Shown piece after piece: positions 10,503-51,719 of a stretch of DNA of 64,000 bases; positions within the stretch are counted from its first letter, which is position 1, and each line of letters starts with the position of its first letter. The translations under genes and the position numbers were made by a program. Below the pieces are notes generated by a model, which was not told the origin of the DNA, searched no databases, and saw only the letters and a program-made list of their open reading frames with translations. The stretch comes from Bacteroidetes bacterium UBA7692 (GTDB lineage: Bacteria; Bacteroidota; Bacteroidia; Chitinophagales; LD1), in NCBI GenBank assembly GCA_002482725.1, contig DLGO01000001.1, positions 856 through 64,855 of the forward strand, given 5' to 3'.

Positions 10503-10871
10503 TTAGTAGCGATCTCCGCCACCACGATTTCCACCTCCGTATCCACCGCCACGGTTGCCACCGCCACCGCCGTATCCGCCACTACCTCCACCGCTTGGAC
10601 GGTTGAAAGTTTTGCGAGGAGCACTTTCGTCGCGCTCGCGAGCTTCTTTTACAGACAATGGACGTTCGCCCACTTCTTTGCCGTTCAAAGCGTCGATAGC
10701 ACTTTGTGCTTCGCTTGAGTTTGGCATTTCTACAAATCCGAAACCACGGCTACGGCCTGTTTCACGATCTGTAACAATTTTTACTGAGCTAACTTCACCG
10801 TAACGCTCAAATTCTGAGCGAAGTTGGTCTTCCGTAGCGCGGAAGTGAATGTTACTTACGTACAAATTCAT
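10503..10871 (-). CDS. RNA-binding protein with an RRM domain and a Gly/Arg-rich tail
   Basis: 122 aa. RNP2 is LYVSNI and RNP1 is RGFGFVEM. The C-terminus is GGGSGGYGGGGGNRGGGYGGGNRGGGDRY. Confidence 0.9.
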   Translation of the reverse strand: MNLYVSNIHFRATEDQLRSEFERYGEVSSVKIVTDRETGRSRGFGFVEMPNSSEAQSAIDALNGKEVGERPLSVKEARERDESAPRKTFNRPSGGGSGGYGGGGGNRGGGYGGGNRGGGDRY

Positions 10872-18893: not shown

Positions 18894-18993
18894 TTCGGTT
18901 GGCGCGTGCTCTAAACGTGAATATAGCTATTATAATATGCGTTCTGATCAAAATGTCGATTCTATGCTCATTTATTAACCTTTGCTTTATATC

Positions 18994-19760
18994 GCTGAGG
19001 GTAAAAATTGATGGTGTTTTCTGATGGTAGCTTTATGGGTGTGCTGGGGGTAAATTGATGGTGTTAAATGAGGGTATTTCTTGAGGGTAAATGATGGGGT
19101 GATTTTGGTTTGTGCTGAGGGTATTTTTATTGTTCATTTATTGCTTCCAGGTGTATCTGTTTAGGGCAGCTTTTGTCTTTAGAAAATTACTTTTTTTTGT
19201 CCGTTTTTTATCCCGGTAATATTCTTCTTAATAAATTGATTATCAGTATATCACTATGCTTTTTGGTCTTTTAGAAGATTATGCATTTTGGGTGATTTCT
19301 GTTTATCTCCAAATGCTTTTTTTGTCCGCTTGTCAAAGAAGGTGTCGCTGAGGGGGTAAAATTGACTTGGAGAGATGTTTTCTGAGGGTTTGTTTATTGT
19401 CCATTTATTGATTTCTGGCTTACCTGTTTAGTGCAACTTTTGTCTTTAGTCATTTACTTTTTTTTGTCCAATTTTTGTCCCGTTAATGCTCTTGTAAAAT
19501 AATTGATTATCAGTATATTAATATGCTTTATTGTCTTTTAGAAGAATACACATTTTGGGTGATTTCTGTTTACTTGCCAATGCCTTTTTTTGTCCGCTTA
19601 TCAAAGAGGGTAACGCTGAGGGTAAAATTTGACTTGTAGAGCTTGTTTTCTGAGGGTGTTTTTTAAGTGTGGCATTGAGGGTCTTTTATGTCTGTAAATA
19701 ATAGTTTTGCTGAGGGTAAAATAGCATGCTGCAAAGAGGGGAAACCTGAGGGTAAAATCA
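18994..19760 (+). repeat. same-orientation array of TGAGGGT(A/T-rich) words in a coding-free island
   Basis: Ten exact TGAGGGT copies start at 18996, 19069, 19082, 19116, 19383, 19617, 19651, 19676, 19711 and 19747. Variants are TGAGGGGGT (19349), TGGGGGT (19045) and TGATGGT (19009, 19022, 19057). All are on the + strand. Confidence 0.85.
19115..19649 (+). repeat. tandem direct duplication, two units of about 267 bp
   Basis: Unit 1 (19115-19381) and unit 2 (19382-19649) align end to end. Both run CTGAGGGT..TTTATTGT.CATTTATTG...CTGTTTAG...CTTTTGTCTTTAG...TTTTTTTTGTCC...AATTGATTATCAGTATAT...TTTTGGGTGATTTCTGTTTA...TTTTTTTGTCCGCTT.TCAAAGA.GGT..CGCTGAGGG. By eye roughly four fifths of positions are identical. 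Confidence 0.9.
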
Positions 19761-20073
19761 TGCTTTTTATTATACGCTAAATACACTTTCATTCCTCAAT
19801 TTTTGATTTTTATCAAAATCGTCACAGTCTTTTATCCTGCCTGTTTTATGTAAAGAACGATTTAGGCAGCCTTGTATATTTTAGAATCAAAAAACCTGCC
19901 AAAGTATACTTCCTACATTGCAAAATTTGAAGAACTGACAGATTGCCATATGCGTGGGTAACAGGTTTTTACAAAACGCAAAATCTTTGCACTTTCCTTA
20001 AGATATGGTAAGAAGATCTGTCAGTAACGTTAAAAGTTTTTTTATTTCCATGATAAATTTCAACTTACAGCGC

Positions 20074-43281: not shown

Positions 43282-44190
43282 TTATGAAGTCAGCTGCTTG
43301 AATACCTCTTCCAGCGAGTAACTCTCTTTGTGCAATTCCAGCAGGGTCAGTTGCCTTTGCTTCGCAAACTCAAATATCTCTTCGCGAATATCTTTTTGCC
43401 CTGCTGCGGTAAACTGCCAGTTGCCACCATCCAGCTGCACTATGTGGTTTACACCTTTTATCTCGCTCAGTATGGCTTTCGTCACCGGTTGTTTAAAGGC
43501 TGCCGTCACCAGCATCTCATTGTTTATGCGGCTCTGTAGCTGCTCGGTAGTATCATCGGCCACTATCTTGCCCTTATTGATGATAATAACCCTGTCGGCC
43601 ACGGCCTGCACCTCCTGCATGATGTGCGATGAGAATACCACCGTTTTATCCCTGCCCAGCTTTTTTATCAGTGCGCGTATCTCTACCAGTTGGTTCGGGT
43701 CCAGTCCGCTTGTCGGTTCGTCCAATATCAGCACTTCCGGGTTGTGCAGCATCGCTTGCGCCAGCCCTACCCTTTGCTTGTATCCTTTCGATAGTTGGCC
43801 TACCTTCTTTCTGCGCTCGGCAGTCAGCCCTGTGGCTTCCAGCATCTCGTCTATGCGCGACTTTGTTTTGGTACCTAGCTTGTGTATGCCTGCCATAAAC
43901 TCCAGGTACTCCACCACATACATATCGTAGTATAGCGGGTTGCTTTCCGGCAGGTAGCCTATGTGCTTTTGCGCCTCTATTACATCGGTGGTTATATCCT
44001 TGCCGCATACCAACGCCGAGCCTGCTGTCTGTGGCAGGTAGCCCGTCAGTATTTTCATGGTGGTGCTTTTTCCTGCGCCATTTGGCCCCAGGAATCCAAG
44101 CACTTCGCCTTTCTTTACTTCAAACGATATATCGTTTACCGCCTTTTGCGGTCCGTATTCTTTAGTAAGGTTTTTAACCAGTATTGACAT
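43282..44190 (-). CDS. gldA: gliding motility-associated ABC transporter ATP-binding protein GldA
   Basis: 302 aa. Walker A GPNGAGKSTTM, signature LSKGYKQRV and Walker B LILDEPTSGLD. This is the ABC-2-type ATPase expected to partner with gldF/gldG. Confidence 0.75.
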   Translation of the reverse strand: MSILVKNLTKEYGPQKAVNDISFEVKKGEVLGFLGPNGAGKSTTMKILTGYLPQTAGSALVCGKDITTDVIEAQKHIGYLPESNPLYYDMYVVEYLEFMAGIHKLGTKTKSRIDEMLEATGLTAERRKKVGQLSKGYKQRVGLAQAMLHNPEVLILDEPTSGLDPNQLVEIRALIKKLGRDKTVVFSSHIMQEVQAVADRVIIINKGKIVADDTTEQLQSRINNEMLVTAAFKQPVTKAILSEIKGVNHIVQLDGGNWQFTAAGQKDIREEIFEFAKQRQLTLLELHKESYSLEEVFKQLTS

Positions 44191-44200
44191 GTTGCGCTGC

Positions 44201-44548
44201 TTAAAACTTATATTTCTTCACTTTCAATCCATATTTTTTGGCCTCTGCGCAGCTCACTTTTATGCTGTGCAGCTTTAGCGGTGTGCCCGCCATCCGAAAG
44301 TTAGGTGGTATTTTTCCTACCTCGCCTGTAAAGGTAACTTTCAAACCATCTTTTTTTAAAGAATCGGGTAGCTGCCTGCTTATATACCTCTCGTTTGGGT
44401 CGGCGTCCGTTATTATCACCACCAAGTCCTCGCTCAGCACTTTTATGCTGCCTTTTACATTCTTTATGGTCTTGTACCATTCAAAATCCTGCGCCTGCAC
44501 AGCACAGCTTGCCAGCACCAATCCGCATATCAACATTACGTACTTCAT
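44201..44548 (-). CDS. hypothetical secreted protein or lipoprotein
   Basis: 115 aa. The signal peptide is MKYVMLICGLVLASCAVQAQ. It lies 10 nt downstream of gldA. I recognise no family. Confidence 0.55.
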   Translation of the reverse strand: MKYVMLICGLVLASCAVQAQDFEWYKTIKNVKGSIKVLSEDLVVIITDADPNERYISRQLPDSLKKDGLKVTFTGEVGKIPPNFRMAGTPLKLHSIKVSCAEAKKYGLKVKKYKF

Positions 44549-44680
44549 ATATCCCTTTCTTTTTTTAACACCCCAAATATGTTGCCAAAAATCGGAATCA
44601 AACTGTTGATAATCCCTAAACAGCTAAATTTTTATCAATTCCGGGCTGTTACATGTTTCGTCTGAATGTATATTCGCGCC

Positions 44681-46228
44681 ATGAGCACATCGACAACATC
44701 ACCTGCTATCACATTTCAGGATATTATTTCGCACTGCAAGGAGTATGGCTTCATTTTCCCTTCATCAGAGATATATGATGGCCTTAGCGCCGTTTACGAC
44801 TATGGCCCTTATGGCATAGAGCTGAAAAACAACCTGCAGCAGTTCTGGTGGAAGTCCATGGTGCAGCTGAACGAAAACATCGTGGGCCTGGATGCAGCTA
44901 TATTCATGCACCCGAAAACCTGGAAGGCCAGCGGTCACGTGGATGCTTTCATGGATCCTTTGATAGATAACAAAGACTCTAAGAAAAGGTACCGCGCCGA
45001 TGTGCTGATAGAAGACGCCCTGGCTAAGTTTGAAGACAAAATTGCAAAGGAGGCCGATAAGGCAGCCAAGAAATTCGGCGATACCTTCGACCGCGAAATG
45101 TTCCTGAAAACCAACCCCAACGTGCTGCGCACACAGGAGAAGTTCGATGCTACAGAGGCGCGCTTCAAAAAAGCGCTGGAAGACAACGACCTTGCAGAAG
45201 TACGCCAGATAATCATAGACCTGGAGATTGCCTGCCCTGTCAGCGGCACCAAAAACTGGACCGAAGTGCGTCAGTTCAACCTGATGTTCAGCACCGAGGT
45301 GGGTTCTGTGGCCGAAGAAGCATCTACCATATACCTGCGCCCCGAAACAGCACAGGGAATATTCGTTAACTTCCTGAACGTGCAGAACACTTCGCGCCAG
45401 CGCATACCGTTTGGTATAGCGCAGATTGGCAAGGCTTTCCGAAACGAGATAGTAGCGCGCCAGTTCATATTCCGCACACGTGAGTTCGAGCAAATGGAGA
45501 TGCAGTATTTCGTGCGCCCCGGCTCCGAAATGGAGTGGTTCCACCACTGGAAAGAGTCGCGCATGAAATGGCACCGCAGCCTTGGTTTTGCCGAAACCAA
45601 CCTTAAGTTTTACGACCACCTGAAGCTGGCACACTACGCCAATGCAGCGGTAGACATACAGTTCAACTTTCCGTTTGGCTTCAAAGAAATAGAGGGCATA
45701 CACAGCCGTACCGATTTCGATTTGAAGAGCCACCAGGAGCTGAGCGGCAAAAAGCTACAGTACTTCGACCCCGAGCTGAACCAAAGCTACATACCGTATG
45801 TGGTAGAAACCTCGGTAGGTCTTAACCGTACCTTCCTTGCACTGATATGCAATGGCCTGAAGAACGAAAAGCTGGAAGACGGCAGCGAGCGCACTGTGCT
45901 TCAACTGCCTCCTTTCCTGGCGCCTATCAAAATAGCTGTATTCCCATTGGTGAAAAAAGACGGTCTGCCGGAAAAAGCGCGCGAAATATTCGACGTGCTT
46001 AAATTCGACCACCGCTGCTTCTACGAAGAGAAAGACAATATCGGCAAGCGCTATCGCAGGCAGGATGCTATAGGCACGCCTTTCTGCATAACTGTAGACC
46101 ACCAAACACTGGAAGACAATATGGTAACCCTGCGCGAACGCGACAGCATGCAGCAGGAGCGTATCAGCATAGAGCGCCTTCAGCAGGTGGTAAACGAAAA
46201 AGTAGACTGGAGAAAAGCCTACAAATAG
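44681..46228 (+). CDS. glyQS: glycyl-tRNA synthetase (dimeric GlyQS type)
   Basis: About 515 aa from the ATG at 44681 (44666 is also possible). Class II motifs are present (YLRPETAQG, GKAFRNEI, FEQMEMQYF) together with an anticodon-binding C-terminus. Confidence 0.95.
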   Translation: MSTSTTSPAITFQDIISHCKEYGFIFPSSEIYDGLSAVYDYGPYGIELKNNLQQFWWKSMVQLNENIVGLDAAIFMHPKTWKASGHVDAFMDPLIDNKDSKKRYRADVLIEDALAKFEDKIAKEADKAAKKFGDTFDREMFLKTNPNVLRTQEKFDATEARFKKALEDNDLAEVRQIIIDLEIACPVSGTKNWTEVRQFNLMFSTEVGSVAEEASTIYLRPETAQGIFVNFLNVQNTSRQRIPFGIAQIGKAFRNEIVARQFIFRTREFEQMEMQYFVRPGSEMEWFHHWKESRMKWHRSLGFAETNLKFYDHLKLAHYANAAVDIQFNFPFGFKEIEGIHSRTDFDLKSHQELSGKKLQYFDPELNQSYIPYVVETSVGLNRTFLALICNGLKNEKLEDGSERTVLQLPPFLAPIKIAVFPLVKKDGLPEKAREIFDVLKFDHRCFYEEKDNIGKRYRRQDAIGTPFCITVDHQTLEDNMVTLRERDSMQQERISIERLQQVVNEKVDWRKAYK

Positions 46229-46267
46229 CCCTTGTCAGTAGCTTACTTTTTGCAATTCCCAACTGTT

Positions 46268-46548
46268 AAAAAATGGCGGTGGTTGGCGGTGGCTGGCGGA
46301 ATTTGCGTTTTTCAGCATGAATTTCGCTTTTTTGCGGCACTTTCAATGCGCTAAACCTTTTGCCCTCAACACTCTTAGCCAAATTTCTGTCGGTAAAAAC
46401 ACGGACAGTTTTTCGGCTTTCTGTCGGTACCATCACCCAAAAAAGTGGCGGTGGTTGGCGGTGAGTGGCGGAAATTACGTTTTTTCAGCCTTTTTGAAAT
46501 TGTTAAAATCTGCGGTACCAAAATTGCGGTATTTCTGACGGTGTTTTA
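46268..46548 (+). repeat. direct repeats and a TG(N)CGGT word array in a coding-free island
   Basis: A ~45-bp direct repeat AAAAAA(T/G)GGCGGTGGTTGGCGGTG(GC/AG)TGGCGGAA(A)TT(TG/A)CGTTTTTCAGC occurs at 46268-46316 and 46439-46489. CTGTCGGTA occurs at 46387 and 46421, CTGCGGTACCA at 46510, TTGCGGTA at 46524, CTGACGGTG at 46536 and an outlier CAGTCGGTAAAT at 46819. Confidence 0.8.
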
Positions 46549-46986
46549 TTCACACACGCCGTCCTGTATTCCCAAATTTTAATTGTACTCCGGCTGTAAA
46601 AAAATCCGTGTGTTTCAGTGAAATCTGAGTAATCTGTGATCCCATTTCAGACAAAAAAAGAACGCTCCGGGTCATCGATCCACGCGCTAATGTAAATGTC
46701 AAGTGCTATTCGACTTTAGCAAAAAAGGCGGCAAAGTTTTTTGCCTGGTCTAACTACATGATTAGCAGGTGCATGTATGTAAATTAAAAAATGTGAATGC
46801 CTGTCTTTTAATGCTCTTCAGTCGGTAAATATTTTTACCTCTGGCACAAATTAGCCTAACTAATGTATCGCGTTTGGTGTTTTGGTTTTTACGAAATAAA
46901 TACGTGTATTCAATAGGCAATGGGAATTCATAATGTCGAATATTGGTTGCTGAACCTTACAATAACATTTTCATCTTTGCGGCCAA

Positions 46987-47889
46987 ATGAAAAATATAAG
47001 GGCGCACATCATGTTGCTTATCGTAAACCTGTTTTACGGGGCAGGTTTTACAGTTTCTAAGATGGTGATGCCGGAGTTCATAAAGCCCTTTGGTTTTATT
47101 GCAGTCAGGGTATCGGTTACGCTGATACTGTTTGTTATACTGCACGAGATTTTCATCAGGGAAAAGATACAGAAGAAAGACTTTGGCCTGCTGGCCCTGT
47201 GCAGCTTGTTTGGTGTGGTGCTTAATATGGAAATGTTTTTTGTGGGCCTCAGTATTACCACGCCCATAAATGCTGCGCTTATTATGATCATGACGCCCAT
47301 ACTCACCATTATCATATCCTCGTTTGTAGGCAGGGAGGCGCTCACCGGCCGCAAAATTGCAGGCATTGTATTGGGCACCCTTGGCGCGCTGATAATACTA
47401 TCCGGCCGCGGCTTCGATTTCTCTTCTAAGACCATGCTGGGCGACCTGTGCATTCTTATCAATGCTGCCTCCTATGCGGTGTACCTGGTTATTGCCAAGC
47501 CGCTGATGAAGAAATACCATCCGCTTACGGTTATCCGCTGGGTGTTTACCTTCGGTGCTGTTCCCGTATTGATATTTGGGTTGGGGCAATTGCAGGATGT
47601 GCGCTGGTTCGAGTTTTCTACCACTACCTGGCTGGCCGTGGTGTTTGTGGTAATGGGTACTACCTTTTTTGCCTACCTGTTCAATATGCTGGCACTGCGC
47701 GAGGTCAACTCGTCGGTAGTAAGCGCATACATTTATCTGCAGCCTATACTGGCTACCATTATTTCAATACTGGTAAAAAGCGATACGCTTACCATGGAAA
47801 AAGTAATATCGGGCGTGCTGATATTTTCAGGAGTGTTCCTGGTGTCGTATTCGGGCCAAATGAAACTGTTTGGCAGGGTTACGAAGTAG
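46987..47889 (+). CDS. DMT superfamily (EamA-like) transporter
   Basis: 300 aa with ten TM segments arranged as two EamA-like halves. Confidence 0.8.
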   Translation: MKNIRAHIMLLIVNLFYGAGFTVSKMVMPEFIKPFGFIAVRVSVTLILFVILHEIFIREKIQKKDFGLLALCSLFGVVLNMEMFFVGLSITTPINAALIMIMTPILTIIISSFVGREALTGRKIAGIVLGTLGALIILSGRGFDFSSKTMLGDLCILINAASYAVYLVIAKPLMKKYHPLTVIRWVFTFGAVPVLIFGLGQLQDVRWFEFSTTTWLAVVFVVMGTTFFAYLFNMLALREVNSSVVSAYIYLQPILATIISILVKSDTLTMEKVISGVLIFSGVFLVSYSGQMKLFGRVTK

Positions 47890-48037
47890 TTTGTTCAGTG
47901 GCATCAATTATTGCCACCATGAGTTAAGAAGAGGTTAAAGGCCAGTTTGTTTTCAATAATAATTCCGGTAAGACTTAGTATTGCTGCTATAAAGGGGTGT
48001 GGTTTTTTGCGCTATGCCTGCAAGTTAAGCTACAATT

Positions 48038-49381
48038 ATGAAGTACATTTTTTCAGCATGGCTGTTGGTGTTTTGCATCAGTGCGTTTTCTCAGTCGGGT
48101 CAATATATCAAAGATGGCCGCACCGGATGTATGGTTTGGAGCGACGAGCATGCGCCCGAAGACAGCATTAGGTGGAGCGGTGCTTGTAAGCAAGGCTACG
48201 CTTCAGGCCCGGGAGTGTTGGAGTGGTACCATGATAATAAGCTCGTAGTTACTTACAAAGGGAAAATGGAACACGGAAAGCTGAATGGTAAGGGCCGGTA
48301 TTACATTGTAGGGTACGCTACTTTCGATGGTAATTTTGTTGATGGTGCGCTGAACGGCAAAGGTGCTGCTTACTATAGCAACGGAGGGAAAACTATAGGC
48401 AATTTTGTAAATGGTGTTTTTTTGAATCTGGACAATAAGTATCTGAAACTGCTTAAAAAGCACTATGTAGCCATTAGCGATAGTACGGACATCTATGGCA
48501 ATGATGGCGATTGGGACAGGCTTTTCTATTATGCCCTTGTTCCCGGCAATACTATAAAAGCTGTGTTGGTGTTATTCCCTTCTACGGGCGAATCAGTTGA
48601 AAATGTTATAAGCTGCAACAAAGCATTGATGCAGCAGGCATACGACAATGGTATTTTATCGGTTGTGGTAAGCGCCAACTTCAATAAAACATTGGATAGC
48701 GATAAACCTGCCATGCGCTTTTTCGATACGGTTTTTAAAGAACTGCTTGCCAAATTCAATGCGCCGGAGAGCAAATTTGTTTTGTGCGGCCTTTCGCTGG
48801 GCGGTGAGAACGCACTGCAGTATACCGAAATGTCGAGGAACAGTAAATACAATACAGCTATTAAGCCATTGGCTACAATTGGTGTGGACCCACCTGTGGA
48901 TATGGTAGATTTATACTACCGCGCCGAAGAGCAGATCGTGGTGTATGAAAAGGAAGGTTCCAGTCTGTCGCAGAGCAAAAAACTGGCCTTGCAGGAGAAC
49001 TATTTTTTGATGGATTATTTTAAGAAATTGTACGGAGGCTCGCCAAAGGAATTTCCGGACAAATATGTAGAGGGTTCACAGTTTTCGAGAGACAGGGCAG
49101 ATGGTGGCAACGCTAAGTATTTGCTGGATGTGCCCGTAAGGCTGTATTGCGACCCCGATATAGTATGGCAGCTTAAAAATAAGGGCAGGGACTATTACCA
49201 CATGAACGCAGCCAGCCTTTCTGCCATGGCAAATTTTCTGATGCAGAACGGTAATACAAGGGCAGAGTTTATACCCGCGCTGGGCAAGGGCTACAGGGTT
49301 GATGGCGAACGGCATCCGCATTCGTGGTCTATTGTAGATCCAACCGACTGTATTAAATGGATTTTATCCCTCGTAAAATAA
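48038..49381 (+). CDS. secreted protein with N-terminal MORN-like repeats and a C-terminal alpha/beta-hydrolase-like domain
   Basis: 447 aa with a signal peptide. Repeats are of the type GKMEHGKLNGKGRYY / GNFVDGALNGKGAAYY / GNFVNG. A nucleophile-elbow-like LCGLSLGGENA is present. Confidence 0.6.
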   Translation: MKYIFSAWLLVFCISAFSQSGQYIKDGRTGCMVWSDEHAPEDSIRWSGACKQGYASGPGVLEWYHDNKLVVTYKGKMEHGKLNGKGRYYIVGYATFDGNFVDGALNGKGAAYYSNGGKTIGNFVNGVFLNLDNKYLKLLKKHYVAISDSTDIYGNDGDWDRLFYYALVPGNTIKAVLVLFPSTGESVENVISCNKALMQQAYDNGILSVVVSANFNKTLDSDKPAMRFFDTVFKELLAKFNAPESKFVLCGLSLGGENALQYTEMSRNSKYNTAIKPLATIGVDPPVDMVDLYYRAEEQIVVYEKEGSSLSQSKKLALQENYFLMDYFKKLYGGSPKEFPDKYVEGSQFSRDRADGGNAKYLLDVPVRLYCDPDIVWQLKNKGRDYYHMNAASLSAMANFLMQNGNTRAEFIPALGKGYRVDGERHPHSWSIVDPTDCIKWILSLVK

Positions 49382-50513: not shown

Positions 50514-50803
50514 GATGTCCTTGCGGTAATTTAAATATTGAATAAATGAGTTCGCTTTGTGCCTGACAGGCAAGCGACATAGCAGTTATTTCAGTCAAGG
50601 GTAATGTGCTATAGCTTAGTTTGGTGGGGTGGATGCGTACTGCTTTGCTGAGATTATGAATATCCCATTATAAGCAATAAAGTTCCCTTGTTGGGATGCC
50701 GCATAAATATGGTTTCAAGTTGCTTTTCAGCGTGGTATATGTCAACCGGGTTTGTGGCATAGGTTATGCAACAGAAGGATGTTTGCTGACCAAATTAAAT
50801 ATT

Positions 50804-51289
50804 ATGAGAACCACAAAAGTTAATGTGCTGATAGTGGAAGACTGCAGTGCAGAGCTTCTTCTTTTTAAATTAGCGCTGAAGGATTCCCGCCTTGTGCACT
50901 TCATTTCGCTTATTGTTGCGCGCAATGGTTCAGAGGCAATTGACCTGCTTATTCAAAAAGAAAGGGATAAAGAATGTATTGATTTGATGCTGATGAATAT
51001 TAACCTGCCTATGTTGTCGGGTACAGATGTGTTACGCAAAGTGAGGTCACAGAATATGCCCTCTCTGCAGGTATTCATTATAAGCAACTCGGGTAACGAT
51101 TCGGATATCAGCGACTGTTACGAACTGGGTGCAAATGCTTATATACAAAAACCAATAGATTATGACCACCTCGTTGATTTCTGTTCCCTAATAAAGCATT
51201 GCATACAAACGCATGGTTTGGTGGATATAGCATTGATGGAAGAGGAATTAGGTGTCGGGCTTATGAAAGCCGGACATTACAGGTACTAG
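50804..51289 (+). CDS. single-domain response-regulator receiver protein with an atypical Asn at the phospho-acceptor position
   Basis: The ATG at 50804 gives MRTTKVNVLIVEDC.... The receiver fold markers ED pair, FIISNS and YIQKP are present, but the expected LLD(I/L)N(M/L)P reads LMNINLP. Confidence 0.75.
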   Translation: MRTTKVNVLIVEDCSAELLLFKLALKDSRLVHFISLIVARNGSEAIDLLIQKERDKECIDLMLMNINLPMLSGTDVLRKVRSQNMPSLQVFIISNSGNDSDISDCYELGANAYIQKPIDYDHLVDFCSLIKHCIQTHGLVDIALMEEELGVGLMKAGHYRY

Positions 51290-51371
51290 GATTTTCCCGT
51301 CACAACCCTTGCGGGAAGAAACACTGGTAAGTCGCCAATAAAGAAATTACAAAGCTCTTAAAGCTACCCTA

Positions 51372-51719
51372 TCAGGTAAGCTCGTTTTTACCGTTTACGT
51401 GTATAGTAACAGGCACGTGTGTTTTATACTCTTCCGGCGTCATTTGTGCGTACGATATCACTATTATGATGTCACCCAAAGCCACTTTGCGCGCTGCAGG
51501 CCCGTTCATGCACATAATACCGCTACCCCTTTCTCCGCGTATAACGTAAGTCTCCAAACGCTCACCATTGTTCACATTTACTATTTGTACCTTTTCATGC
51601 TCCACCAGGTTGGCAGCTTCCATCAGGTTCTCATCTATGGTTATGGAACCGATATAGTTAAGGTCCGCTTGTGTAACAGTGGCGCGGTGTATTTTCGACT
51701 TGTAGACTGTAATTAACAT
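51372..51719 (-). CDS. panD: aspartate 1-decarboxylase
   Basis: The start is taken at [29 protein letters not shown], which includes the Gly-Ser self-cleavage site. The listed ORF extends 15 codons further upstream. Confidence 0.9.

Follow-up and report, generated by a model that had tools for sequence, protein, structure and literature searches.

The stretch of DNA analysed here, a 64-kb window, contains a 758-bp segment that lies between two conserved genes and that we call island 2 (46229..46986, no strand assigned). On its left is glyS (44666..46228, + strand), which encodes a class II glycyl-tRNA synthetase of 520 aa with Pfam tRNA-synt_2b and HGTP_anticodon domains, and on its right is an EamA/DMT transporter gene, likewise identified by Pfam (46987..47889, + strand), whose start in the public annotation is placed 8 codons later (P0001, 292 aa). 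These two genes, together with a secreted hydrolase-like gene and core genes, make up a neighborhood that is syntenic with relatives, and the G+C content of the island (0.42) is the same as that of the genome. The original prediction described the segment as a gap without a credible ORF, and our ORF, Pfam, and blastx checks bear this out. The ORF at 46317..46538, which had been judged not protein-like, is present and 73 aa long. Neither this nor any other ORF of island 2 has a Pfam match, and when the 73-, 56-, and 52-aa ORFs were looked up in the public protein collection, none was present. A possible EamA promoter of the Bacteroidota type was read by eye at 46944..46975 (+ strand), where TTG, 21 nt, and CATCTTTG would give a single mismatch to the −7 box TAnnTTTG; a motif scan found the exact form of this canonical box nowhere in island 2.

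Comparison of the regions downstream of glyS, a check suggested in the original prediction, revealed that island 2 has no alignable counterpart in the nearest relatives. One of these, L161, is ∼88% identical, shares the gene order over 14 kb at 82–90% nucleotide identity, and lacks island 2 altogether. Its glyS–EamA gap is only 83 bp and contains a strong terminator, a GGGCGGG/CCCGCCC hairpin followed by T6 (−18.9 kcal/mol, z = −4.3), and blastn homology to the window ends at 46232 and returns at 46986. A sister strain, available as two independent assemblies (L285 from JGI and L286 from Logan), matches the window at 96.5% identity over the 2.35 kb that end at the glyS stop codon, and the blastn match to L285 ends at 46228. 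Beyond the stop codon, the sister strain carries at least 888 bp of unrelated noncoding DNA and has kept the ancestral terminator. Within 46233–46985, blastn gave no match to L161 or L285, and local alignments of island 2 with the L285 island are not significant in either orientation. Remote homology between these two islands was considered (a score of 40 vs 29 with simple shuffles) and rejected, as p = 0.058 with dinucleotide shuffles and control segments score equally. In the more distant L007 and L008, the glyS stop codon overlaps the EamA start, and in L081 (GlyRS 79% and EamA 66% identical), a 332-aa gene lies between the two.

In the ancestral state, which relatives retain, a strong rho-independent terminator of glyS sits in a short gap, and EamA follows directly. 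Here, ∼750 bp takes the place of this short spacer, and not even the 96.5%-identical strain has anything that aligns with it. Because it is absent or wholly different in the closest relatives, island 2 is fast-turnover intergenic DNA, and it is not a gene, a known RNA, or a recognizable mobile element. Switched intergenic regions between core genes are a recognized pan-genome category (Piggy; PMC5890482), and the locus shows both of its hallmarks, conserved syntenic core flanks and an unrelated spacer between close relatives. That category is descriptive and silent on repeat content, whereas here three close genomes show three states, and one hexamer is enriched in both replacement alleles. 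TGGCGG occurs 6/0 times (+/−) in island 2 and 3/2 times in its L285 counterpart.

The original prediction also reported a direct repeat of ∼45 bp in the gap; the repeat, which we term D1, is real, and its copies are 172 bp apart rather than 171 bp. The first copy, D1a (46268..46316, + strand), consists of an A-run, three TGGCGG, AATTTGCG, a T-run, and CAGC, and the second copy, D1b (46440..46489, + strand), is 88–89% identical to it. Positions 46268–46312 and 46440–46484 match over 45 nt at 89% identity, and BLAST extends the match to 46268–46316/46440–46489 (88% over 50 nt, E = 2.8e-11 against the whole window). Both copies are built as a 10-bp tandem of TGGCGGTGGT/TGGCGGTGGC/TGGCGG, so that each contains three TGGCGG at an exact 10-bp period. 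TRF accordingly reports a 10-nt unit in 2.6 copies at 46274–46299 (93% matches) and in 2.8 copies at 46444–46471. The truly tandem part of island 2 thus amounts to ∼55 of 758 bp, and the remaining words are dispersed at spacings of 12–94 bp. The sequences downstream of D1a and D1b do not align with each other (z = −0.45), which eliminates the 172-bp spacing as a decayed tandem unit and indicates that D1 is a dispersed duplicate. With two copies only, 172 bp apart, D1 does not constitute a CRISPR array. The data do not support the idea that D1 arose when the 5′ half of the ancestral glyS terminator expanded by slippage (AATGGGCGGTG vs AATGGCGGTGG; p = 0.19–0.9).

Along with D1, the gap had been predicted to hold a series of related words on one strand, and all of them were found, the last of the cluster at 46535 instead of 46536. 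They are CTGTCGGTA at 46387 and 46421, CTGCGGTACCA at 46510, TTGCGGTA at 46524, CTGACGGTG at 46535, and CAGTCGGTAAAT at 46819. The first pair belongs to two copies of a TTTCTGTCGGT word on the + strand, one at 46384..46394, which is the first of three TTTCTGNNGGT in island 2, and the other at 46418..46428; together they form a 19-nt repeat, D4, at 84% identity. A cluster of CTGCGGTA, TTGCGGTA, and TTTCTGACGGTG follows at 46510..46543 (+ strand, spacings of 14 and 12 bp), and an isolated CAGTCGGTAAAT word lies at 46819..46830 (+ strand) in the repeat-poor right half. Variants of the word in island 2 include TGGCGGT, TGTCGGTA, TGCGGTA, and TGACGGTG. Outside D1, the words are spaced by 94, 34, 24, 44, 14, and 12 bp, with no helical phasing as read by eye. 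A sigma-54 reading of TGGCGGAATTTGC was discarded because its GG–GC spacing is, by eye, 2 nt too short.

The enrichment and strand bias of these words are pronounced. TGGCGG is observed 6 times against 0.16 expected, all on the + strand of the whole island (6:0), and CGGT occurs 10 times on the + strand and never on the − strand over the full 758 bp, with 9:0 in the left 392 bp (46229–46620). Across the window, the looser pattern YTGNSGGTR has 23 hits on the + strand, of which 7 fall at 19–20 kb and 5 at 46–47 kb, and 5 hits on the − strand. The exact TTTCTGNNGGT has 6 hits in 64 kb against 0.63 expected, all on the + strand, a count reached by 0/100 shuffles; the pattern was picked post hoc, so its p-value is optimistic. 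Within the 64 kb, word clustering is thus far above that of shuffled sequence, against which the original prediction had proposed to judge it. No TTTCTGNNGGT clusters were found in 1.18 Mb of other Bacteroidota loci. In island 2, AA/TT recurs at 10 bp (z = 5.7) and TTT at 9 bp, and in island 1, described below, GG recurs at 11.5 bp; these periodicities are taken as suggestive only, since many tests were made against a weak null.

All of the TTTCTGNNGGT hits outside island 2, three in number, fall in a sister island, island 1 (18990..20004, + strand), in which TGAGGGT occurs 11:0 (+:−) and a 267-bp unit is present in 2.1 tandem copies (19115–19665, 83%). Homology to the relative L163 ends at 18990 and returns at 20029, and the interior is unalignable with that genome. 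The design of the gap was said to mirror that of the 18.9–20.1 kb island, and it does; the two islands additionally share the exact TTTCTGNNGGT, with none elsewhere in the 64 kb. The further suggestion that two such islands point to a family of elements is not supported, at least for discrete elements. The islands show no mutual BLAST or 8-mer similarity (p = 0.18), their dominant words differ (TGGCGG/CGGT in island 2 vs TGAGGGT in island 1), and there is no TIR or target duplication. TGAGG occurs 11/1 times (+/−) in island 1 and 5/2 times in the L163 counterpart, and TGGCGG and TGAGG are each found at most once at the other's locus. The description of the region as a core-genome window obscures the main point, which is that the two islands are hypervariable within otherwise syntenic sequence, the nearest relatives either lacking them or carrying unalignable DNA in their place. 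A third candidate island, a − strand TGGCGG cluster at 10.5 kb, proved to be the Gly-rich tail of an RRM protein gene.

The explanation that we tentatively prefer, at somewhat less than even confidence, is that island 2 is a switched, repeat-built intergenic filler that arose through slippage and duplication in place. The DNA is built from local duplications, in support of such an origin: two 10-bp slippage triplets, a dispersed 45–50-nt duplicate, and several 12–19-nt word duplicates, all in one orientation. Island 1 behaves alike, including its 267-bp tandem duplication. The island would grow and reshuffle in a minisatellite-like manner through replication slippage, local or unequal duplication, and deletion, so that the seed words (TGGCGG/CGGT here, TGAGG at 19 kb) would persist while their arrangement turns unalignable after little divergence. 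Pure slippage does not account for the unique parts, which are also unalignable at 96.5% flank identity, and a wholesale exchange through recombination or insertion has to be assumed as well. On this account, island 2 would require no function of its own. Likely side effects would be that EamA is separated from glyS and that the canonical glyS terminator is lost, so that a weak hairpin with a T5 tail (46387–46413, + strand; −8 kcal/mol, z = −2.2), which overlaps the first TTTCTGTCGGT word, is all that remains ∼160 nt downstream.

Precedents exist in the intergenic short direct-repeat arrays of Bacteroidetes, cyanobacteria, and Beggiatoaceae, which are missing from the shorter spacers of close relatives (PMC4679880). 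In the present comparison, simple arrays of this type, with 7–8-nt and 21-nt units, were seen next to glyS in further Bacteroidota loci. Such arrays, among them long simple sequence repeats, the TAACTGA-type heptamers of Beggiatoaceae, cyanobacteria, and some Bacteroidetes, and the cyanobacterial STRR, resemble island 2 in their noncoding location, short G/T-rich units, single orientation relative to the downstream gene, and presumed origin by slippage, as well as in being present in one strain while relatives have a shorter repeat-free spacer between the same neighbors (PMC4679880). Island 2 differs in that its tandem units number only 2.6–2.8, its words are mostly dispersed, irregular, and of several variants, and they sit, alongside a dispersed 45–50-nt duplicate, in ∼750 bp that is otherwise unique. 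A head-to-tail 5–11-nt unit is thus present, though short, and the array does not make up most of the feature. The lack of long clean tandem runs as in typical simple-sequence arrays, with 2.6–2.8 copies in tandem here, argues against filler. Two observations are left unexplained by it: the exact TTTCTGNNGGT common to islands 27 kb apart and found nowhere else in the window, and the way in which a locus keeps its own word across genomes while the sequence turns over. Selection of the words as binding sites would predict both, and the 88–89% identity of the D1 copies amid unrelated surroundings could reflect constraint rather than recency. If the filler explanation is right, the locus would be a clean, well-bounded case of fast bacterial intergenic replacement, with three states in three genomes whose flanks are 88–96.5% identical, and one in which replacement removes the canonical terminator of an essential gene. 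Its use would be as a caution for annotation and intergenic pan-genome work, and it would not be surprising.

The main rival, which we consider possible but distinctly less probable, takes the word arrays as protein-binding sites of the iteron or integrase/excisionase arm type, and the island as a relic arm or end of an integrative or other mobile element at a hotspot downstream of glyS or as a lineage-specific regulatory or decoy array. The likeness to the arrays of phages, satellites, and integrative elements lies in direct repeats spaced by one helical turn in two clusters, that is, the three TGGCGG at exactly 10 bp in a module present twice, and the words are strictly in one orientation. 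TGGCGG is also enriched in the nonhomologous island of the 96.5%-identical strain at the same site, and the variation begins exactly at the stop codon of the conserved glyS. Variation that starts from a gene 3′ end is typical of site-specific insertion hotspots, such as those of tRNA- or gene-3′-end-targeting integrases and Tn7-like elements. Assemblies also break to either side of the region, which suggests that it is polymorphic in the population sampled. In IMG/VR, TGGCGG triplets with a 10-bp period were found directly 3′ of Prim-Pol/AAA_25 replicative helicase genes (L168, L183, L188), 3′ of Int_N tyrosine integrase genes beside a tRNA-3′-end-like core (L228, L244, L266), and upstream of small-terminase genes (L217, L253). 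However, a scrambled control hexamer, GTGCGG, is nearly as frequent at the same period in viral contigs (106 compared with at least 120 for TGGCGG), and we therefore take these hits to reflect a widespread architecture rather than kinship. The exact 18-mer TGGCGGTGGTTGGCGGTG matches only 10 unrelated high-GC contigs, which together with the control eliminates a special status of TGGCGG in phages.

Several features expected of such an element are missing from the locus. The ∼10–11-bp direct repeats are there, but no integrase, transposase, rep, or terS gene lies beside island 2, where the neighbors are syntenic core genes. There is no duplicated core or att site, as no direct repeat of at least 7 nt links the junctions and no second glyS 3′ end occurs in the window, and the island has no inverted end. 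Inverted word copies, which viral attP-like arrays have, are lacking, the words outside D1 are not helically phased, and plasmid and phage sequences show no homology to island 2 beyond the searched hexamer. Any function must also be dispensable, since L161 lacks the island. Island 2 resembles MITEs and REP/BIME in being a short noncoding intergenic insertion that varies between strains. It differs from them in having no TIR, TSD, or palindromic units, the only inverted match being an 8-nt one at about chance level (AATTCCCA, 46254/46921), and no second copy was found in the 64 kb, except the loosely similar island 1, or in ∼37 kb of relatives.

A wider reading, which we regard as improbable, is that both islands and their unalignable sister counterparts represent undescribed, lineage-specific, strand-oriented word-array loci of this Chitinophagales group, in which the word is actively maintained amid turnover. 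Each locus would have its own G-rich word (TGGCGG/CGGT at glyS, TGAGG at the desaturase locus) behind a shared TTTCTG context. The words might be maintained because the arrays serve a dedicated DNA- or RNA-binding protein as its platform or, alternatively, by a sequence-specific generator such as templated insertion or site-specific recombination at conserved gene ends. Selection on the words, if it proves real, would indicate that an uncultured Chitinophagales lineage possesses a novel factor that binds DNA or RNA, or a novel mechanism that generates repeats, for which D1 and the TTTCTGNNGGT words would be defined baits.

A role at the RNA level is less probable still. The island might act as a long glyS 3′UTR or as a small RNA derived from it, in which UGGCGG binds a protein or C-rich targets, or its C-rich, G-poor − strand transcript might load Rho and thereby stop antisense transcription. 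This genome lacks the canonical glyS terminator found in relatives, and the first hairpin followed by U5 is that at 46387–46413, so glyS transcripts probably extend ∼160–185 nt into the island and include D1a. The words are confined to the sense strand of both flanking genes, and the window encodes an RRM-type RNA-binding protein (10503–10871). Folding does not favor this proposal. The energies of both halves on both strands are shuffle-like (z = −0.20, −0.20, −0.98, and −0.53), D1 is unstructured (z = +0.9), and the island is without the canonical −7 box. The covariance models of Rfam 15 gave no hit in the window, and even at E < 5 the single match was a chance-level eukaryotic lncRNA. On the − strand, a terminator-like hairpin followed by a T-run lies at 46722..46745 and folds weakly (−7.1 kcal/mol, z = −0.4).

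It is very improbable that island 2 is artefactual, the product of an assembly that took a chimeric path where this metagenome-derived contig varies between strains. In Logan assemblies of two runs with identical flanking proteins, the contigs end within glyS and within the gene that follows EamA, and exact-protein look-ups for an independent contig with island 2 returned only contigs that stop before it. The flanks, however, are joined in the same order and orientation as in relatives, the G+C content matches that of the genome, the two sister-strain assemblies have an equivalent though different island at the same place, and island 1 shows the same properties inside a contiguous syntenic block. 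The least credible reading is a decayed pseudogene, such as a remnant of the gene that L081 carries between glyS and EamA, and it is effectively refuted: tblastn of the L081 protein against island 2 gave a best E of 12, and blastx of island 2 against all ORF fragments of at least 50 aa from 165 Bacteroidota loci (L001–L164 and L285/L286) hit only the glyS and EamA flanks, so the translated search against relatives that the original prediction had named as a test detected no similarity inside the island. An oriC was suggested by a cumulative GC-skew minimum at 45–46 kb and a gene-strand switch near 44.6 kb, and was rejected because the island is absent in L161 and different in L285. A single near-consensus DnaA box, TTATTCACA, was noticed by eye at 46548.

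Island 2, the 758-bp gene-free gap at 46229-46986, lies between glyS (44666-46228, + strand, with tRNA-synt_2b and HGTP_anticodon domains) and an EamA/DMT transporter gene (46987-47889, +) of a Chitinophagales-like Bacteroidota host, for whose GlyRS the best matches among species-representative genomes come from MAGs with Chitinophagales or Bacteroidetes labels, at 79-85% identity. All sequence features listed for the gap in the original prediction are present, after one-base corrections to the spacing of the dispersed direct repeat D1 (172) and to the position of CTGACGGTG. The two D1 copies (46268-46312 and 46440-46484) are 45 nt long at 89% identity, reach 50 nt at 88% identity when extended (E = 2.8e-11), and each contain three TGGCGG with a period of exactly 10 bp (TRF: 2.6 and 2.8 copies). 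The + strand words are CTGTCGGTA at 46387 and 46421, CTGCGGTA at 46510, TTGCGGTA at 46524, CTGACGGTG at 46535 and CAGTCGGTAAAT at 46819. Word counts against expectation and shuffles confirm that these repeats and words are non-random: TGGCGG occurs six times in island 2 (0.16 expected), and CGGT is found ten times on the + strand and never on the - strand (9:0 in the left 392 bp). Over the 64 kb, YTGNSGGTR has 23 matches on +, 12 of them within island 2 and its sister at about 19 kb (island 1, 18990-20004), and 5 on -. The sharpest feature common to both islands, which are the only gene-free stretches in the window longer than about 450 bp, is TTTCTGNNGGT, with three + strand matches in each and none elsewhere in the window (six observed vs 0.63 expected; 0 of 100 shuffles reach six, for a pattern picked post hoc). 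Its 15 matches across 1.18 Mb of other Bacteroidota loci are the background rate, and no two of them fall within 400 bp. A candidate third island at 10.5 kb was rejected; its minus-strand TGGCGG/CCGCCA cluster is the Gly-rich tail of an RRM-domain RNA-binding protein gene (10503-10871, -).

The exact EamA sequence, with a later start codon, has one entry in the public protein collection, and relatives were reached through its 90% cluster, which leads to a sister species represented by JGI metagenome contigs (L161/L162), and through the GlyRS cluster, which leads to a sister strain (L285/L286). Across window 41.5-55.9 kb the sister species shares gene order and 82-90% nucleotide identity, with homology stopping at 46232 and restarting at 46986; its glyS-EamA gap is 83 bp, essentially one strong terminator (GGGCGGG-CATAA-CCCGCCC then T6; -18.9 kcal/mol, z = -4.3). 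The sister strain is 96.5% identical over 43877-46228, and homology ends exactly at the glyS stop codon. L285 retains the ancestral terminator (-16.8 kcal/mol), and beyond it lie 888 bp or more of DNA that looks non-coding and is unalignable to island 2 in either orientation. Each of the three close genomes has its own state at the position immediately after glyS, which is therefore hypervariable, and island 2 is a recent, dispensable acquisition or expansion. Among more distant relatives, glyS overlaps EamA in two loci (L007, L008) and a gene lies between them in another (L081). The window's glyS is without a canonical terminator, lost along with the presence of island 2, where the first + strand hairpin with T5 (46387-46413) is weak (-8 kcal/mol); derivation of D1 from the ancestral glyS terminator was tested and was not supported.

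Island 1 behaves in the same way. Homology to the relative L163/L164 ends at 18990 and restarts at 20029, and its interval of about 570 bp is unalignable to the window's roughly 1015 bp, about half of which consists of 2.1 tandem copies, 83% identical, of a 267-bp unit (19115-19665). This tandem unit has TGAGGGT words at its borders and TTTTTTTGTCC motifs inside. Each locus keeps its own word though the alleles are unalignable: TGGCGG downstream of glyS (+/- counts of 6/0 in the window and 3/2 in L285, with 0/0 at the other locus in both genomes) and TGAGG at the desaturase/EGF locus (11/1 in the window and 5/2 in L163, with at most one at the other locus). All four enrichments give p < 0.0005 against shuffles, and TTTCTGAGGAT occurs twice in L163 too. 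The TGGCGG/CCGCCA words of L285 make up the stems of hairpins that resemble terminators and precede U-runs; the TGGCGG words of island 2 are direct throughout, without hairpin formation. The proposed "family of elements" is partly supported: both islands have a design and one motif in common, yet neither shows itself to be a discrete element. The unexplained persistence of locus-specific words is the main point of interest.

The best-supported reading, which we hold tentatively, is that island 2 is switched, repeat-built intergenic filler. Its strain specificity, its make-up by duplication, its one-strand words and the absence of coding, RNA or mobile-element hallmarks are directly observed. 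Slippage, local duplication and deletion would generate and reshuffle the island, with occasional wholesale replacement besides; it would have no function of its own, and altered glyS termination and the setting apart of EamA from glyS would be side effects. The variant belongs with known kinds of repeat-rich, switched intergenic DNA: some Bacteroidetes, cyanobacteria and Beggiatoaceae are reported to have intergenic short direct-repeat arrays where close relatives have shorter spacers without them (PMC4679880), and "switched" intergenic regions that lie between conserved core genes form an established category (PMC5890482). Simple arrays also adjoin glyS or its promoter in other fetched Bacteroidota loci, with clean short tandem arrays beside glyS in L002 (5600-5830; a unit of about 21 nt, 10 copies) and, with units of 7-8 nt, in L041 (2900-3280), L048 (3860-3970), L058 (3945-3995) and L060 (5500-5642); those of L041, L048 and L058 extend to a TAnnTTTG -7 box just upstream of the start codon.

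The main rival, which we regard as unlikely, takes the words as iteron- or arm-site-type protein-binding sites and the site as an insertion hotspot; it accounts better for the phasing within D1, for TTTCTGNNGGT being common to both islands and for the persistence of the words, but has no partner gene, duplicated att sequence or inverted end in its favour. TGGCGG-N4-TGGCGG-N4-TGGCGG is found in at least 120 IMG/VR contigs, mostly as tandem 10-mers among the matches listed, and array positions are stated for contigs with readable context. One would expect origins (iterons) 3' of helicase genes, attP arms 3' of integrase genes and packaging sites upstream of small-terminase genes. Triplets of TTGGCGGAAG-type 10-mers lie directly 3' of AAA_25 helicase genes (708-759 aa) in L168 (1395-1420), L183 (6555-6580; Prim-Pol domain also matched) and L188 (4164-4189), and TGGCGG arrays lie upstream of small-terminase genes in L217 and L253. 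Directly 3' of Int_N tyrosine-integrase genes, L228 (8667-8725), L244 (427-480) and L266 (9856-10075) carry TGGCGG direct repeats of 10-11-bp period plus inverted copies, followed in L228 and L266 by tRNA-3'-end-like sequence (..TTCGATTCC..CCACCA) and in L266 by a second TGGCGG cluster beyond it; this arrangement resembles a complete attP flanked on either side by arm-type sites. Scrambling the hexamer while keeping the period gives 106 contigs, and the exact D1 18-mer hits only ten, unrelated and high-GC. Helically phased hexamer triplets are shown to be a common protein-binding architecture in mobile DNA; the viral matches demonstrate no kinship with island 2, and blastn against PLSDB plasmids and INPHARED phages gave no similarity. 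A MITE-like element was rejected, with no terminal inverted repeats, target duplication or second copy of the glyS 3' end.

An RNA-level role is very unlikely: Rfam gives no family at gathering score across the window and only chance-level eukaryotic matches at E < 5 in the islands, both halves of island 2, on both strands, have the folding energy of shuffled sequence (z = -0.2 to -1.0), and D1 shows no structure either. The canonical Bacteroidota -7 box TAnnTTTG does not occur in the island; a box with one mismatch, CATCTTTG, precedes the EamA start by 12 nt. That island 2 is an assembly chimera we consider highly improbable. No independent contig spans it among assemblies with identical flanking proteins; in independent Logan assemblies with proteins identical to the window's (SRR5322598, SRR845265), two contigs (L393, L394) break off within glyS, past residue 411, and a third (L395) begins inside the 447-aa gene after EamA. 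The breaks flank the 3 kb holding island 2 and EamA, and their presence on both sides suggests population heterogeneity, with several alleles of this segment coexisting in the samples. The predicted want of a credible ORF is borne out, in that the small ORFs (73-aa ORF included) have no Pfam match and the public protein collection lacks the three that were searched for in it (73, 56 and 52 aa). A pseudogene origin has a negligible chance, as a blastx comparison of the two islands with every ORF fragment from the fetched Bacteroidota loci, relatives included, finds flanking genes only, and the 332-aa gene that separates glyS from EamA in L081 has left no trace.

The EamA start codon is ambiguous (46987 vs 47011): the ORF allows 300 aa and the public annotation has 292 aa, and the 314-aa JGI call in the sister species crosses the glyS terminator there. 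Genes switch strand at 44549-44665 (- at 34.9-44.5 kb, + at 44.7-51.3 kb), near the window's minimum of cumulative GC skew at 45-46 kb, and island 1 has a similar local switch; skew minimum and switch are probably a mere effect of gene orientation. Relative to L161, a clean 1.34-kb insertion at 48024-49362, with no flanking repeats seen at its junctions, holds the single 447-aa gene (48038-49381, +), whose product combines MORN-like repeats and a GLSLGG (GXSXG) hydrolase motif with an N-terminus resembling a signal peptide, and matches no Pfam or NCBIfam family. At 50516-51373, 858 bp replace 161 bp of L161 and carry a gene (50696-51289, +) for a 197-aa receiver-only response regulator, which is also present in the Logan contig L395 of the same strain.
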